From Dictyostelium discoideum (lineage: Eukaryota), in assembly GCA_000004695.1 (NCBI GenBank), contig CM000151.3, forward strand, positions 7,168,001-7,232,000: a DNA stretch of 64,000 nucleotides, given 5' to 3'. The notes under the pieces were generated by a model. The model was not told the origin of the DNA. It was given only the letters and a program-made list of their open reading frames with translations, and made no database searches. Numbering within the stretch: position 1 is the first letter of the stretch; each line of letters opens with the position of its first letter. The translations under genes and the position numbers were made by a program. This document shows, piece by piece, positions 4,695-20,054 of the stretch.

Positions 4695-5337
4695 TGACAA
4701 ACAACAATAATAATTTAAATAAAGAAGGTTGGTAAAATAAAAAAAAAAAATAAAAAGAATAGTAATAAATAAAAAATATAAAATTATTAATAATTCTTTT
4801 TTTTTTTACTTAGTTAATAACTTAGAAAAAGAAGCAGTATCAGCATATGATAACACAAAAGAAGCAACAATCAATGCATATAATGCAACAACAAATGCAA
4901 TGAGTGATGGTATGAAATATGTTAGTGATTCATTATCATCAGCAGCTGAAGTAACAAAAGATGCAACAATCAATATGTATAATGCAACAACTAACGCAGT
5001 GAGTGATGGTTATGAATCTTTAAAATCAAAAACAAATGAATTAATTGACAATACTCAAAATGAAAATAAAAATTTAAAAGATGGTACTTCAAAGAAAATC
5101 GAAGAATTAAAAGATGAATCAAGTGAAGTAAAAGATAATATTAAAGAAAAAGGCGAAGAACTAGTTGAAGATGCTAAAGATGCTGCTCATAATGCTTCAA
5201 ATAAATTAAATAACGCTAAAGATCAAGTTTCTGATAAAATGGATAATGTAAAAGATGATTTATCAAATAAATACGATGAAACAAAAAAAGAAGCCGCTCA
5301 CAAACTTAATCAAGCTTCAAATAAAATTGATCAATAA
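4695..5337 (+). CDS. Small hydrophilic K/E/D/N-rich protein, LEA-like or amphipathic-repeat (paralog 1 of a tandem pair). Two exons: 4695..4728 (MTNNNNNLNKE) and about 4826..5337 (acceptor at 4825 or alternatively 4813).
   Basis: ORF 4900..5337 stays open upstream to a poly-T. A short upstream exon, ATG...GAAG|gt, joins in phase 1, exactly as in the downstream paralog. The donor GTTGGT is weaker than consensus. The protein carries 11-mer-like repeats (ATINMYNATTNA / KD..KEKGEEL). Confidence 0.5.
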
Positions 5338-5980: not shown

Positions 5981-6667
5981 ATGACAAACAATGACAATAT
6001 AAATAAAGAATGTAAGATTTTGGAAATAATAATATAAAAAAAAAAAAAACCATTAAAAAAAAAAAAAAAATAATTCTAACAATGTTATATAACATTTTTT
6101 TCCATAGCTACAAATTTTAAAAATGATGTAGTTACAGCATATGATAATTCATTAGATGCAATGAGTGATGGTATGAAATATGTTGGTGATTCGTTGTCAT
6201 CAGCAGCCGAAGTAACAAAAGATAAAACAATTGAAATGTATCATAAAACAACTAATGCAATGAGTGATGGTTATGAATCATTAAAATCAAAAGCAAATGA
6301 ATTAATTCACCATTCAAATGATGATGATGAAAGTCAACATGAAGATGGTGCTTCTAAAAAAGTTGAAGAATTAAAAGAGAAATCCAATCAAGTTAAAGAT
6401 GATATTAAAAAGAAGGGTGAAGAATTAAAAGAGAAATCAATAGATGTTAAAAATGAAATAAAGGATAATTTAAAAGAAAAAGGTGAGGAACTAGTTGACG
6501 ATGCTAAAGATGCTGCTCATAAAGCTTCAAATAAGATGAATGGTGTTAAAGATAATTTATCAGAAAAGATGGACGATATTAAATCTGATATGTCTGATAA
6601 ATATAAAGATGTAAAAAAAGAAACTGCTAATAAATTAAATCAAACTGCTAATAAAATTGATCAATAA
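5981..6667 (+). CDS. Small hydrophilic K/E/D-rich LEA-like protein (paralog 2). Two exons: 5981..6011 (MTNNDNINKE, donor GTAAGA at 6012) and 6108..6667 (acceptor ccatAG).
   Basis: ORF 6161..6667 extends upstream to the acceptor at 6106-6107. The upstream mini-exon begins with ATG and has a consensus donor, and the phase-1 join gives MTNNDNINKE-S-TNFKNDVVTAYDNSLDAMSDGMKYVGD... The product is about 60% identical to the 4695..5337 gene, including the MTNN start. Confidence 0.6.
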
Positions 6668-6865
6668 TAATTTTTAAGACTTTTTATTAATATTGATTAA
6701 TTTATTTATCATTTAATTATAAAATTTGATTTTATTTATTAAATTTAATAATATTTTTTATATTTGAAAGTTTATTAAAAAACATTAATGATTCATTTGC
6801 TTGGTAATCTATTTAATCACTAATCCTTTTAGTTTATGAACCACCACCATGACTATTATCTGTCC

Positions 6866-7040
6866 CATGCCAAAATTAATATGGCTGCTGAAATTAATAT
6901 GATAATTTTGGCATGGGACTTATGTCTGCTAGAATTACCATATTAATTTCGGCAACCATATTAATTTTGGCATGCACAGACCAACTATTTTAGGCTAAAA
7001 TTAATATGGCTGCCGAAATTAATATGGTAATTTTGGGCAC
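6866..7040. repeat. Composite repeat of three ~45-bp units, arranged direct - inverted - direct (about 6870-6918, 6938-6975, 6995-7038). Each unit has the form ccaaaattaatatggctgc(t/c)gaaattaatatgg(t)aattttgg. The unit is itself an imperfect palindrome: tcccatgccaaaattaatat ... atgataattttggcatggga.
   Basis: Seen directly. Unit B (ccatattaatttcggcaaccatattaattttgg) is the exact reverse complement of units A/C. This is a locally GC-enriched island inside AT-rich intergenic DNA, capable of extensive hairpin or cruciform folding. Confidence 0.7.
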
Positions 7041-7555
7041 AGAAAAATAAAAAAAAAACTCAAAGTCATTTAATTAATAATAATAATCATCTCAAATATA
7101 AAAGAATTAAAAATAATAATAAAAAAAAACTCATGGGATTAATTATAGTAACAATACTGACGACAAGAATAATTATAAAATAAAAAAAAAAAAAAAAAAT
7201 CTTTTTTTATCTTTTTATTTTTATTTCTTATTTATTTTCATGTGTTCTAAAAAAGTGGTGGTTTAAAACAATTTATTTAATTTTAAACTGTATGATTGTT
7301 TAAACAATTTCGAAATAAGTTTCTTTAATTTCTGTATTTCTTTTTTTTATTTTATTTTATTTCATTTCATTCTATTTTTTTTTTTTTTTTTTTTTTTTTT
7401 ATTTTTTTATTTTTTATTTTTTTTTTAATTATTTTAATTAATTTAATTATATAATGATTTAATAATAAAAAATTAATATTTAGAAAAGTGACTGATTGAG
7501 ATACCTGCGTTATTTTGCTTGATTAACAAAAAAAAGAATCCAAAATATGGTCCAC

Positions 7556-7825
7556 AGTAAAAACAATAAATTAAATAATCAACTTTCTGCAACAGAAATT
7601 GAAAAAAATAATAATAATAAATTAAAAAAACTTTTGAAAAAATATGAAGAAGATGTAAATTTTACAAATAGATTATAAATTTCATGTGTCCAATAAATTT
7701 GGTATTATGAAATTGTAAAATTTACATCTTCGTCATATTTTTTCAAAAGTTTTTTTAATTTATTATTATTATTTTTTTCAATTTCTGTTGCAGAAAGTTG
7801 ATTATTTAATTTATTGTTTTTACTT
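7556..7825. repeat. Long near-perfect inverted repeat (hairpin). The arms are about 112 bp each (7556-7667 and 7713-7825), separated by a ~45-bp spacer, with a single mismatch (gaagaagatg vs gacgaagatg).
   Basis: The left arm is agtaaaaacaataaattaaataatcaactttctgcaacagaaattgaaaaaaataataataataaattaaaaaaacttttgaaaaaatatgaagaagatgtaaattttacaa. The right arm is its reverse complement, ttgtaaaatttacatcttcgtcatattttttcaaaagtttttttaatttattattattatttttttcaatttctgttgcagaaagttgattatttaatttattgtttttact. Confidence 0.85.
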
Positions 7826-7955: not shown

Positions 7956-8266
7956 ATGGTAAAAACATCAATATATGTAGGAGGTTTAAAGTAATTATTT
8001 CTATTTTTATTTTTTTAAAAAAAAAAAGTATAAATAATTTACTCTTTTTTTTTAAAAATTTAAGTTCTCATATTTCTAAAGAAATTTTAAAAACAAAGTT
8101 TTCAGTGTATGGTGAAATACAATCACTTGTTTTTGTAAAAGGTAAGGAAACAGGAATATCAGAAGGTTATGCATATATTGAATATAATAATAAAGAAGAT
8201 GCTGTGAAAGCAATAGATGATTTAAACGACCAACCATTTGAGGGTAATCATTTAGAATTATTTTAG
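7956..8266 (+). CDS. Small single-RRM RNA-binding protein (~78 aa). Two exons: 7956..7990 (MVKTSIYVGGL + AA) and 8065..8266.
   Basis: Not in the ORF track. ATG GTA AAA ACA TCA ATA TAT GTA GGA GGT TTA AA|gtaatt is followed by an 74-bp intron and then ttaag|T TCT CAT ATT..., giving MVKTSIYVGGLNSHISKEILKTKFSVYGEIQSLVFVKGKETGISEGYAYIEYNNKEDAVKAIDDLNDQPFEGNHLELF*. RNP2 (IYVGGL) and RNP1-like (EGYAYIEY) motifs are present in the correct spacing. Without splicing the ORF terminates at TAA (7991-7993). Confidence 0.55.
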
Positions 8267-8767
8267 AAATTATCTAAAAAAAAAGAAATAAAATATGAAA
8301 AATAAAAAAATAAAAATTTTTAAACTTTATCTAATTCATTTTTTATTAAAACAATTCCTTTTCTTTTAAAAAAATATAAAATAAAAAATATTTTTTATTA
8401 TGAAAATAAAAAAGCAGAATTAAATTAAAACATAAAATAATTATTTAAAAAAAAACAAGGAATTTAATTTTTTTTTTTTTTTTTTAATAATTTTAAATTG
8501 GTTTTTATTTGTTAGATTATATAAAATAAAAAATTGAATAAATAACTATAAAATGACTTTCTGGATATAATAAAAAATAATCATTATTAAACCAATTTGT
8601 TTGATTACATCTTTAGATTTGTACTTTTTATTTTAGAAAAAAGAACAACCTATTACAGATAAAATTTTTTTTTTTTTATAATTTTTTTTTTTTTTATTTT
8701 TTTATTTTTTTATTTTTTTTTTAAATAAAAAGGAATCAGTTTATTGAACCGTTATATCCTTTTTTGT

Positions 8768-11135: not shown

Positions 11136-14100
11136 ATGAAAAATAAAATAATTTTATTATGGTTGTTATTAATAGTGATCCTATGTACAATTTCAAATGT
11201 AAAAGGATGTGGTATGACAACACATAATACAGTGGCAAGAAGAGCATATAACTTCTCAAGTTTTGATGGTAACTATTAATGTTAATAAAAATAATGGGGA
11301 AATCAAAAACTAATTTATTTTTTTTATTTTTTATTTTTTATTTTTTTTATTTTTTTATTTTTTATTTTTTTTTATTATTTTCTTTTTTTTCTTTTTTTAT
11401 TTTTTTTTAAAATAGGTTTTGAACAATATCAAAAATATGTTTCAGAGAATTTTGATGTATTTGATGCAGGTGCAGCATTCCCAGATTTTGGATATGATTG
11501 TGGTGGATTAGCAAATGAATCAGAAGCAGCACATTGGCCACCATTTTTAAGAGCAGCAACTAAATACTTATTAGAAACTTATCCCCAACCATGGAGTTTG
11601 GATGGTATTAGATTAGCAGTATTTCTTTTAGGTGTAACTTCACATCAAATTGCTGATATTTCATGGCATTCAATTGGTGGTATTCAACAAGGTTTAATTC
11701 GTGCTATGGCAGGTCAAGATTTTAATGGTACTTATGAATTAGCTCATGGCAATGCTGATGAAGGTGGTGAATTTGAATTAGCTTATAATTATGATTTATC
11801 TTGGTTATCTGATAGTAAGTATAATATATATATATATATATATTAAATATTTAGCATTTATATTAATTATTATTATTATTATTATAAAATTTAGAATGGT
11901 ATGTGCCAATTACAGATATAAAGAATATTTTTCATTCAATGAATTATCCAAGAGTTGATGATGAAAATTTATTAAGATGTAATGCAATATTGTATGCTGG
12001 TGCAATGGGTGTTAAGATTGGTGGTAGATTTTTCTATCCTGAAATTGCAAAGAAATCACCATTCTTGGTTGACCATTATCAAGATTATTTCATTGGTGGT
12101 TTGGATGATATGTCAATTTGGACATCATATTGTTGGCCAGTATTAATGGGTTGGATGGATGGCGAAGATATTGGTGATTTTTGTTTTATTCAACCTGATC
12201 CAAATAATGATGATGACAATCAACATTTACGTTTACATCATAAACATTCAATATTAAAAAATGGTTCAAAAATTAAAGAAGCATTATCAAAATCAATTTT
12301 AAATGAAATGAAAATTACAAATAATGGTAAAGGTGTAACTTTTTCATTACCAAATTCAATGGAAAAAGCAATTAATCAAGTTTTAAATAAATTTAATCAA
12401 AATCCAATTGGCACATTATTAGAAAAATATTTACCAAATTTATTTAATAATAAAAATAAATTTTATCAAGAAAATGAAAATGAACAATATAATCATGATG
12501 AGGAGGAATTAAATATTATTGATATTGATATTGATATTGAAGAAGAAGAACAAGAAGAAGAAGAAGATAAACCAATTAGAATGTTATCAAAGAATAATAA
12601 TTTTAAAAATTATGAATATTTAAATGATAAAAAGAAATCATCATCGTCAAAATTAAAAAATAAATCTAAAAAGAATATAATTAAATTAAATTCAGATTCA
12701 AATGATTTAGGAACTAATTTTACAACTATTTATGGTCAAAATATGTATTCTTATTTTGGTAAAGATATTAGAAGCAAAGATTTGAATGGTGATGGATTTG
12801 ATGATTTAATTATATCATCACCAGGTTTTGGTGTGCCAGGTTCAATGCAAACTGGTTGTGTTTATTATATCATTTCAAATGGAAGTAGTGTTACAATTGA
12901 TGGTGGTAGTGGTTTCACATCAGAGTTTGATATTGATCAAGTTGCAACTGGTAAACTTTGTGGTAATGAAACTCATGCAAAATTTGGGTGGAATATTGAT
13001 GTATTAGATTTTAATTTAGATGGTATTTTTGATATTATTATTGGTGCACCATCTTCATCCAATGCAAATCTACAATATTTAGGTATGATATATATTTATC
13101 TTGGTGAAAAGAACAACCCTGCTGGTGAATGGAGTACAGAATCTGATTTACCAAGTATAACCATTCAAGGTATTGAATATGCTGATACTATTGGTACAGT
13201 TTTAAGAGTTGCCGATTGTAATGCCGATTCAAATGCAGATTTAATACTTGGTTCACCACATTCTGCTGGTGGTGGTACTCAACGTGGAACAGTTCAAATA
13301 TTTTATTCATCAAAAAAGAGAATCTCTGGTATTCCAATTAGTTTAAATGATGCAGATTATTATGGACATGGTGAAGTTGATTATGAATGGTTTGGTTATG
13401 AAATTAAGGTTGCAGGTCAAGGTGATAGTTCAACATTGTTGGTTGGTTCACCAAATTATCATGATGAAGAGACAGCAATTGTGAATATTGGTAAAATCAC
13501 ATCGTTCCCATATAATGTAAATTTAAATTCCTTTGATTTAAATCCAAAGTTTGTTATGGTTGGTGTTAATAAAAATGATAAACTTGGCTATAGTTATAAT
13601 ATGGTAAATGGCTCTTTATTTGGTTTGGATAATGTCAATGATATTATGGTACTTTCATTACCAACGAGAGGATTTGGTGATGATTTCGACCAAGTTGGTG
13701 AGGTGGTATTAATTGATATCGATAATCTATCAGGTTTCGTCGAGATTAAGAATGTAAATCTTTTACTCTCTATTAAAGGTACAACCAAATATTCAAGATT
13801 TGGTGAAAGTTTATTAATTGGTAAATTAGAATCAACTGATGAATTTGCTCGTCTATTCGTTGGTGCTCCATTATGGACCGATTCAATCGATACTGGTCCT
13901 GGTTGTGTTTTCACTTTCTTACCAAATCAACACCTTACAAATGATCCTGCAGTTTTAAAACAAAATATAATTAATAATACACCAGTGGTTATCTATGATT
14001 CAACTCATAGTATCAAAACTTTTAGAATTGACGATGACAGTGGTAGTAGTGGTGGTAGATCATTCAATAATAAAAGAAAAGATAGTAGATTCGGTTTTAG

Positions 14101-14209
14101 AATACTTTTATCCGATTTTAATAATGATGGTAAAAATGATTTAATAGTTAGTGCCGATCGTGATTCTTCAAAAATATTAGAAGGTGGATCAATTAATATA
14201 TTTCAATAA
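11136..14209 (+). CDS. Glycosylphosphatidylinositol-specific phospholipase D (GPLD1) homolog: signal peptide, an N-terminal Zn-dependent PLC-like catalytic domain, and FG-GAP beta-propeller repeats. Three exons: 11136..11268, 11416..11814, 11895..14209.
   Basis: The translation contains CGMTTHNTVARRAYNF..., ...HWPPFL..., LGVTSHQIADISWHSIGG, RWYVPITD and KSPFLVDHYQDYFIGGLDDMSIW. These are collinear with mammalian GPI-PLD (CGLSTH..., ITSHMAADVSWHSLG, RRWYVPV, KSPFLVEQFQEYFLGGLDDMAFW). Multiple FG-GAP motifs follow (FGWNIDVLDFNLDGIFDIIIGAP, FGYEIKVAGQGDSSTLLVGSP). Splice sites are GATG|gtaact...atag|GT (phase 1) and GATA|gtaagt...ttag|AA (phase 1). Confidence 0.85.
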
Positions 14210-14241
14210 TTGGAAAAAAACATATATACATTATTATTAAC

Positions 14242-14242
<1 letters not shown>

Positions 14243-14335
<93 letters not shown>
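14243..14335. repeat. (ATA/TAA)n trinucleotide microsatellite, about 31 units, in the 3' flank of the GPI-PLD gene.
   Basis: Seen directly: a perfect aataataat... run. Confidence 0.9.
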
Positions 14336-14464
14336 TAATAGGGAAAATCAAATACAATTGTAAATTAAATATTTAAATAAATTTTTTTTTTTTTTTTTTT
14401 ATTTTTTTATTTCTTTAAACAATAATTGATAAATTTTGTTTGTAGATAATTATTTTTAAATTGT

Positions 14465-15317
14465 TTAAAGATTACAAAATACTTGTTGATTAAATTCTTG
14501 ACAATATTGGACACCGGTTTTAAAAAATTCGGAATAGGTATATCTAATACAATTGTTTTGATTGTGAGAGTAGTATTGATCAAAGTTTGTAGAATTACAA
14601 GTTACTTGATATGCTGTACTTTCACTAGTTAATAAGCATCTATTAATTGGTGTATATCTAATTGTTGTAAATGTTTGTTTCCAATTACCACCACATTCTC
14701 CTGTATAATCAAATACAACTAATGTATCTTTTGGAATTACAATTTCTGACGAATCAATAATAGTATATATATATGACCCTGATAATTTACAATCCATTAC
14801 ACATTCATCAATTTTAAAATGTTCAATACTGTAAAAGGTTCTATATTATTATGAATTTTATATTAATATCATTATTATTATTTATTATTATTATTTTTTA
14901 TTATTATTATTAAGAAACTTACTGGCATCTATCTTCTGTATATGCAGTTTTTGAAATTGTACCATTGGCATAATCTACTCTGTAGATGTAATAATAATAA
15001 TTATCATTATCCATTAAAAGGCACTCACCGACTACAACGAATAATTCATTTTCAATTTCACTGTTATCACAATCTTGAATTGATGATGACCAACTTGCAG
15101 ATTGAGAATTACCACCATCAATATTACCTAAATTTAACATTCTTTCGTCTGTTGCAAAACTACCTGTTGACATTGGTCCTAAACCACTGGAATCAGAATC
15201 TCTACAACGATATTGATCATATTGGAATGTCTTTATTGAAATTACTGATTCACCACTAGATAAATAAAAATTATTTACTGAAACTAATATTAAAACTAAA
15301 AATGTTAAAAATTTCAT
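14465..15317 (-). CDS. Secreted cysteine-rich protein, copy A of a tandem three-gene family (~254 aa, signal peptide MKFLTFLVLILVS...). Two exons on the minus strand: 14923..15317 and 14465..14828, with a 94-bp intron (donor CA|GTAAGT, acceptor ttttacAG).
   Basis: ORFs 14919..15317(-) and 14465..14797(-) join in phase 2 through an AT-rich intron, giving ...AYTEDRC-H-IEHFKIDECVMDCKLSGSY... About 12 conserved Cys are shared with the paralogs. I recognise no family, so the fold and function are unknown. Confidence 0.6.
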
Positions 15318-19980: not shown

Positions 19981-20054
19981 GCCTTAGTAGCTCAGTTGGT
20001 ACGAGCGTGAGACTGAAGATCTTAAGGTCGCTGGTTCGATCCCGGCCTGAGGCA
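19981..20054 (+). tRNA. tRNA-Phe (anticodon GAA), 74 nt, no intron, CCA not encoded.
   Basis: Cloverleaf: acceptor GCCTTAG/CTGAGGC (one G-U pair), D-arm GCTC-AGTTGGTAC-GAGC, anticodon stem TGAGA/TCTTA with loop CTGAAGA (U33, GAA at 34-36, G37 as in tRNA-Phe), and T-arm GCTGG-TTCGATC-CCGGC. The A-box (TAGCTCAGTTGG) and B-box (GGTTCGATCCC) are present. Confidence 0.9.

Follow-up and report, generated by a model that had tools for sequence, protein, structure and literature searches.

A young quasi-palindrome of Dictyostelium discoideum with the shape of a newly born hairpin-RNA gene: a candidate locus

The Drosophila hpRNA genes are hairpin-RNA loci of animals, and an inverted-duplication model for the birth of plant MIRNA genes was reportedly put forward by Allen et al. 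in 2004. In these animal and plant hpRNA and proto-MIRNA loci, the arms of the repeat are similar to a target gene or a parent gene. Within the genus Dictyostelium, a hairpin of D. firmibasis, dfi-mir-1190, has been called a young miRNA: it is 256 nt long, has no unpaired bases in its duplex and is represented by about 100,000 reads (Edelbroek et al. 2024; PMC11014262). In D. discoideum itself, the hairpins formed by thug-S repeats are proven sources of DrnB- and RbdB-dependent miRNAs (PMC6161686, PMC4894637), and hairpin transgenes give rise to siRNAs in all of the strains tested (PMC3661229). [quoted passage not shown] At the DNA level, the human palindromic AT-rich repeats (PATRRs) are near-perfect palindromes of a few hundred base pairs with an A+T content above 90%, and change biased towards the centre is expected of palindromes that form hairpins or cruciforms (PMC7999016).

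The locus described here lies in a 64-kb window, by which we mean the whole stretch of D. discoideum AX4 chromosome 2 that was analysed (G+C 21.7%). An earlier note on this DNA had reported a near-perfect inverted repeat whose two arms differ at one position and are separated by about 45 bp, and base-by-base comparison bears this out. The left arm (7556–7667) and the right arm (7713–7824), which is its reverse complement, are 112 nt each; the only difference between them is at position 7648, an A, which faces a G at 7732 where a T would be needed for pairing; and the degenerate centre (7668–7712) is 45 bp long. The element as a whole (7556–7824) is a 269-bp quasi-palindrome with a degenerated centre, 84% A+T (GC 16%), and its outer edges are sharp, complementarity ending abruptly outside 7556/7824. 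A repeat search extends the arms to 7556–7677 and 7703–7824, i.e. 122 nt that are 96% complementary. Nothing else in the window had been thought to approach this degree of dyad symmetry, and indeed a scan of all 64 kb revealed no other inverted repeat of at least 40 nt above 83% complementarity; those that remain are poly-A/poly-T matches.

A transcript of either strand is predicted to form a double-stranded RNA stem of about 110–120 bp, in agreement with the hairpin of about 110 bp proposed beforehand. The folding energy of the region, a check that the earlier note had itself named, is −150.8 kcal/mol for the + strand RNA and −148.7 kcal/mol for the − strand RNA, compared with about −39 ± 4 kcal/mol for dinucleotide shuffles (z = −26, with none of 100 shuffles as good). 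As DNA, the same sequence folds with −115.9 kcal/mol (z = −30). The predicted RNA structure consists, in order, of a helix of 92 bp, a 1 × 1 mismatch, a helix of 18 bp, a one-sided bulge of 12 nt (7667–7678), a centre helix of 8 bp (7679–7686/7706–7713), an apical helix of 4 bp (CCAA/TTGG, 7690–7693/7699–7702) and an apical loop of 5 nt (7694–7698). It contains 122 predicted pairs, 121 of them Watson–Crick and one G·U.

How does this element compare with the systems described above? The precursor hairpin expected of a canonical miRNA gene (PMC11014262, PMC6161686) is present. Like dfi-mir-1190, and also ppo-mir-1226 (Edelbroek et al. 2024; PMC11014262), it is long, almost perfectly paired, species-specific and intergenic, and the size and energy of the hairpins are of the same order (256 nt and −0.56 kcal/mol/nt for dfi-mir-1190, against 269 nt and −0.71 kcal/mol/nt at 22 °C for the palindrome). 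The two nevertheless share no sequence similarity, and the syntenic locus of D. firmibasis has no hairpin. Moreover, dfi-mir-1190 is defined by precisely processed reads, whereas the palindrome is in none of the D. discoideum miRNA lists searched and is known from sequence alone. The structural hallmarks of an hpRNA locus, namely a near-perfect duplex of more than 100 bp with a short spacer, are found here as well (112-nt arms, one mismatch, 45-nt centre). As in hpRNA and proto-MIRNA loci, the inverted repeat is long, intramolecular, near-perfect and very young, and it would be diced into heterogeneous siRNAs; it differs from them in having no parent gene in the protein collections and no target in the 64-kb window. 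The form of a PATRR is also recognizable: the palindrome is near-perfect, AT-rich, a few hundred base pairs long and without homology to other palindromes, although its A+T content, at 84%, does not reach the level given for PATRRs (more than 90%) and its centre is an imperfect 45 bp (PMC7999016). In architecture, the nearest counterparts of the palindrome are the young miRNAs with long hairpins known from Dictyostelia and the hpRNA/proto-MIRNA loci; at the DNA level it resembles a small PATRR.

The palindrome had been placed in a 1.3-kb intergenic gap just upstream of a small RRM gene. The gap itself is there, since the upstream open reading frame ends at 6667 and the RRM gene starts at 7956, but it is not empty in the AX4 annotation: a hypothetical protein of 43 amino acids, DDB_G0276727 (7547–7678, + strand), is annotated almost entirely within the left arm. 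Along the + strand the order is a pair of LEA/apolipoprotein-like genes, a thug-S repeat, a T-rich tract, the palindrome, the RRM gene and, farther downstream, a gene for GPI-phospholipase D (GPI-PLD; 11136–14209, + strand, in a protein cluster that includes XP_642807). The LEA/apolipoprotein-like genes (4900–5337 and 6161–6667) are tandem paralogues that encode repeat proteins and have about 67–83% DNA identity; their models in related assemblies have one more upstream exon, and D. firmibasis has the same pair with an RRM gene after each member. A tRNA-Phe (GAA) gene is also found in the window, at 19981–20054 on the + strand, by both ARAGORN and Rfam.

The RRM gene, DDB_G0276725 (7956–8266, + strand), has two exons that encode 78 amino acids, and its spliced translation is 100% identical to the annotated protein. 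Its ATG lies 132 nt past the end of the palindrome, so that it is a possible read-through partner of a palindrome transcript. The only match to its protein at E ≤ 1e-8 in the protein collection is itself. The RRM genes in the corresponding places of D. firmibasis share only about 32% identity with DDB_G0276725, and one of the related genomes introduced below (L007) keeps, at the DNA level, only the 5′ part. This small RRM gene evolves fast or is orphan-like.

We compared this region with syntenic loci from seven other assemblies, reached via the GPI-PLD protein and covering about 23 kb each: a second, independent D. discoideum assembly (GCA_054883475.1, hereafter L005), a divergent genome labelled D. 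discoideum (GCA_054859355.1, L001), two genomes of ‘D. cf. discoideum’ (L006 and L007), D. citrinum (L002), D. dimigraforme (L003) and D. firmibasis (L004). The palindrome is present in L005 (6426–6693 of that locus), where it is 97.7% identical over 301 nt and folds as RNA with −145.5 kcal/mol; it is therefore no artefact of cloning or assembly. It was not found by blastn at the syntenic locus in any of the other six (L001, L002, L003, L004, L006 and L007), nor did an inverted-repeat scan and a sensitive word-7 search restricted to the spacers reveal a hairpin in the corresponding spacers of these six relatives. In L001 and L006 an entire block of about 1.6 kb is missing, which holds the RRM gene as well as the thug-S copy and the palindrome and runs in the window from about position 6673 to position 8316 or 8601. 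In L007, a 375-bp spacer without the palindrome precedes what is kept of the RRM gene, its 5′ part, and in D. firmibasis the RRM genes occupy the same places with no palindrome upstream.

Absence from the syntenic position of six relatives indicates that the palindrome is evolutionarily young, and by parsimony the pattern of presence and absence places its origin within the D. discoideum lineage sensu stricto. The small difference between the arms (1 of 112 positions in AX4, two substitutions and one indel in L005) is consistent with a young age. A single-arm progenitor was also sought in the syntenic spacers of the relatives with blastn word sizes of 20, 11 and 7, which returned low-complexity noise only; a MAFFT alignment of these spacers was not meaningful. 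These comparisons and the protein searches described below show that neither a recognizable protein-coding gene nor the ancestral spacer sequence of this locus gave rise to the palindrome. The spacer between the LEA-like gene and DDB_G0276725 is fast-evolving.

Three further observations were made in these assemblies. The missing block corresponds to positions 7019–7192 of L001 and 7041–7339 of L006 and is a lineage-specific indel. L001, despite its label, is only about 90–94% identical to the window here, which suggests that the name ‘D. discoideum’ spans rather divergent genomes. Finally, the D. firmibasis locus contains at 14126–14882, downstream of the GPI-PLD gene, units of about 100–120 nt in alternating orientation, which form inverted repeats that are 91–100% complementary with about 67% A+T; each unit ends in ...GTGGTCACAGAAAAAAAA, they look MITE-like, and they have no counterpart in the window.

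We may wonder at this stage whether such a structure is used as RNA. The reading that we favour tentatively, with a probability of roughly 0.4, is that a recent inverted duplication created the palindrome and that its hairpin RNA is transcribed and diced, being functionally neutral or nascent. A duplication in the AT-rich spacer would have produced the 269-bp quasi-palindrome specific to D. discoideum sensu stricto; transcription of its + strand, from a start site of its own or by read-through, is plausible; the stem formed by such a transcript would be about 120 bp long, and from it the Dicer-like nucleases of Dictyostelium would release siRNA-like RNAs of about 21 nt. The palindrome would then be a hairpin-RNA or ‘proto-miRNA’ locus comparable to the young miRNAs of Dictyostelia. 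Its fold has the shape of a newly born siRNA/miRNA-like hairpin-RNA gene and makes it a possible example of one, a candidate only.

Transcription of the + strand is plausible since all of the neighbours lie on that strand and a promoter-like T tract precedes the hairpin by about 130 nt. This tract (7375–7427, + strand) starts with 26 consecutive T (7375–7400), continues with runs of T7, T6 and T10, and lies 128–180 nt upstream of the hairpin; by analogy with the mapped miRNA precursors it could serve a hairpin transcript of the + strand as part of its core promoter. However, T runs of at least 20 occur 41 times in the 64-kb window, about every 1.5 kb, and we have down-weighted the promoter reading of the 26-T run because such runs are too common. 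A further hint comes from L005, in which both stem substitutions leave a G·U pair in the + strand RNA where the − strand RNA would have A·C mismatches; with n = 2 this is suggestive only of a + strand RNA. AATAAA motifs are located in the left arm and in the loop (7565, 7616 and 7692), and a + strand transcript could be ended by them before the second arm.

The indirect evidence does not favour small-RNA output from the palindrome and, if anything, speaks slightly against it. For transcript evidence, the proteins of both hairpin ORFs, of the RRM gene and of neighbouring ORFs were looked up by exact sequence, with no record returned, and Rfam has no family at 7556–7824 even at E ≤ 10. The arm 14–16-mers are missing from the supplementary files of three miRNA surveys (Liao 2018, Meier 2016 and Edelbroek 2024), and neither the mature miRNAs nor the chromosome 2 loci listed in these three studies match the palindrome. 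Across these three surveys, the case against identity with a published D. discoideum miRNA is strong but not absolute, most of the ddi entries in miRBase stemming from another study, Avesson 2012. In the candidate table of Edelbroek 2024, no D. discoideum candidate has the palindrome’s length and energy, and the locus is not one of the D. discoideum candidates that satisfied one or more of the sets of criteria used there. The literature searched contains no mention of DDB_G0276727 or DDB_G0276725 and no arm sequences. Two known loci were considered and set aside. The mir-1177 locus is laid out similarly, with a T run, then the hairpin, an A run and a downstream gene; it lies, however, on another chromosome, beside DDB_G0287713, and gives different mature sequences. 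In the 2024 table, just one D. discoideum candidate, ddis_Cluster_1861, counts as a ‘perfect duplex’; rejected in that study, it is 162 nt long with −1.05 kcal/mol/nt, unlike the palindrome with its −0.59 to −0.71 kcal/mol/nt at 22 °C. As for targets, no 21-mer match with up to three mismatches to genes of the window was found beyond low-information ones, and neither the protein collections nor the 64-kb window yielded the parent or target gene that is typical of hpRNA loci. With no evident target, the palindrome is most likely selectively neutral at present.

A serious alternative, to which we also give a substantial though minority probability, is that the palindrome is inert as RNA: it would have arisen by replication template switching or fold-back repair in the AT-rich spacer and would give no stable hairpin transcript, its only activity being at the DNA level, where a hairpin or cruciform would make it a local hotspot of mutation and rearrangement, like the human palindromic AT-rich repeats. 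The absence of the locus from the searched miRNA lists (Liao 2018, Meier 2016 and Edelbroek 2024) fits this explanation, as does the high stability of the DNA hairpin given above. The main support comes from the comparison of AX4 with L005, which are 99.6% identical over 11 kb. Six of the 14 substitutions found in 11,001 aligned bases fall inside the 269-bp palindrome (7648, 7686, 7687, 7693, 7695 and 7747), to which a 1-nt deletion at 7759 is added. The substitution rate is thus 2.2% in the palindrome and 0.075% elsewhere, a local excess of about 30-fold (binomial P = 5e-7), and four of the six (7686, 7687, 7693 and 7695) lie in the 45-bp centre (P = 3e-7), so that polymorphism is concentrated at the centre as in PATRRs, as far as two assemblies can tell. 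Outside the centre, the left arms are identical except for A>T at 7648, where the only arm mismatch of AX4 thus shows a third state in L005, and the right arm carries A>G at 7747 and the deletion at 7759. Part of this excess may be sequencing or assembly error in one assembly, because palindromes are hard to sequence and just two assemblies are compared.

Three of the four changes in the centre convert GTGTCCAA of AX4 into TGGTCCAC of L005 (6556–6565 of that locus, corresponding to 7686–7695 of the window). TGGTCCAC is identical to the 8-mer directly to the left of the palindrome (7549–7556), and this match may be the footprint of a template switch or of gene conversion. The degenerate centre with its 12-nt asymmetry fits a palindrome that forms hairpins or cruciforms, and is the pattern expected, on general principles, after the stabilization of a perfect palindrome (PMC7999016). 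A cruciform-prone site had indeed been offered as one alternative beforehand; it gains some support from the local excess of substitutions between strains, but only point differences between the two assemblies have been observed, unlike in PATRRs, with no rearrangement or breakage. Other features argue against a purely DNA-level explanation. The A+T content of 84% is lower than in PATRRs, and the 45-bp spacer should lower hairpin formation at eukaryotic replication forks (PMC7999016). In addition, complete transcriptional silence is not the default expectation here, given a compact genome, flanking genes that are all on the same strand and an RRM promoter only about 50 nt away.

A bolder version of the hairpin-RNA reading would be that the palindrome is a de novo hairpin-RNA gene near its birth, arisen within D. 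discoideum, with the T tract as a promoter of its own and with a transcript that is by now diced into 21-nt RNAs. We consider this rather unlikely as a whole. If it were true, the locus would offer a snapshot, inside a single species, of Amoebozoan miRNA genes arising from non-genic intergenic DNA and not by inverted duplication of a target gene, and a raised mutation rate, biased towards the centre, would supply the mismatches that turn an siRNA-type hairpin into a miRNA-type one.

The palindrome could also be a foldback-type or MITE-like mobile element, or the remnant of one, inserted in the spacer in the way of the thug-S insertion 600 bp upstream. That insertion is a thug-S-type repeat at 6878–6964 (region 6860–7050), recognized on both strands by the Rfam model mir-7131 (RF03716) with 95 and 88 bits for a gathering score of 74. 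It contains near-matches, with one or two mismatches, to miRNA_can_D3-5p and -3p of Meier 2016, and a second half-unit at 6994–7036 repeats 6869–6911 at 93%. The thug-S copy is missing from the L007 spacer. Like the palindrome, this relative of ddi-mir-7131 is hairpin-forming, AT-rich and intergenic, and it sits in the same spacer. The sharp outer boundaries of the palindrome, its presence in D. discoideum sensu stricto and absence from relatives whose spacer also lacks the thug-S copy, an arm that is not derivable from the spacer sequence of the relatives, and the known occurrence in this genome of hairpin-forming thug-S repeats that yield miRNAs (PMC6161686, PMC4894637) would all be in keeping with an insertion. 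Yet the palindrome shares no sequence similarity with thug-S/mir-7131, and whereas thug-S exists in many copies whose arms, about 48 nt long, are 90% complementary, the palindrome has 112-nt arms at 99% and is apparently single-copy. No target-site duplication was found at 7555/7825, the flanks reading ...GGTCCAC / AGTAAAAAC ... GTTTTTACT / TTTTTTTTTT... without a direct repeat. No second copy of the arm was found in the 64-kb window (about 0.2% of the AX4 genome) or in the seven related 23-kb loci, about 225 kb in total, and the protein collections contain no annotated ORF paralogous to that of the arm, although the ORF of this copy is annotated. The foldback element suggested by the earlier note thus fared poorly, and we regard a mobile origin as improbable.

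The annotated ORF on the left arm deserves a separate mention. When 5.8 billion proteins were searched by indexed words and 1.84 billion representative proteins were scanned in full with HMMER, DDB_G0276727 matched only itself each time, and tblastn of the arm peptide in the 64-kb window found only its own locus. The GC content of the arm is 15%, as compared with 14.7% in the flanking spacer and 27% in the neighbouring exons. The ORF thus shows neither conserved homologues nor a coding-type composition, and a mirror-image ORF is present on the opposite strand because of the symmetry of the palindrome. With no homologue and an intergenic composition, DDB_G0276727 is probably a mis-annotation, and on this sequence evidence we consider the gene model probably spurious. 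That the left arm is a real protein gene, with the right arm as its inverted pseudogene copy or antisense regulator, is very improbable: its ATG-initiated frame stays open for 43 codons, although the AT-rich DNA of this genome should bring a stop roughly once in 11 codons, and is annotated in AX4 and intact in L005, but it lacks a homologue in any genome, has the GC content of intergenic DNA and not of exons, encodes a low-complexity, N/K-rich peptide, and its sole coding difference between AX4 and L005 is non-synonymous (E>D, at 7648).

What would the palindrome mean for the biology of D. discoideum? If the locus turns out to be silent, then a young AT-rich palindrome without special consequence is all that it amounts to. 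Apart from any RNA, it draws attention to a gene that is probably mis-annotated, DDB_G0276727, and to what may be a mutation hotspot associated with a palindrome in this model genome. If small RNAs do arise here, this would be an unusually clean case of the birth of a miRNA or hpRNA gene, datable by its presence in D. discoideum against its absence in sibling species, and with no parent gene, in an organism that already offers small-RNA libraries and the full set of Dicer, RdRP and Argonaute mutants. If true, it would bear on a question that Edelbroek et al. (2024) have posed, namely why the turnover of miRNAs in Amoebozoa is so fast.
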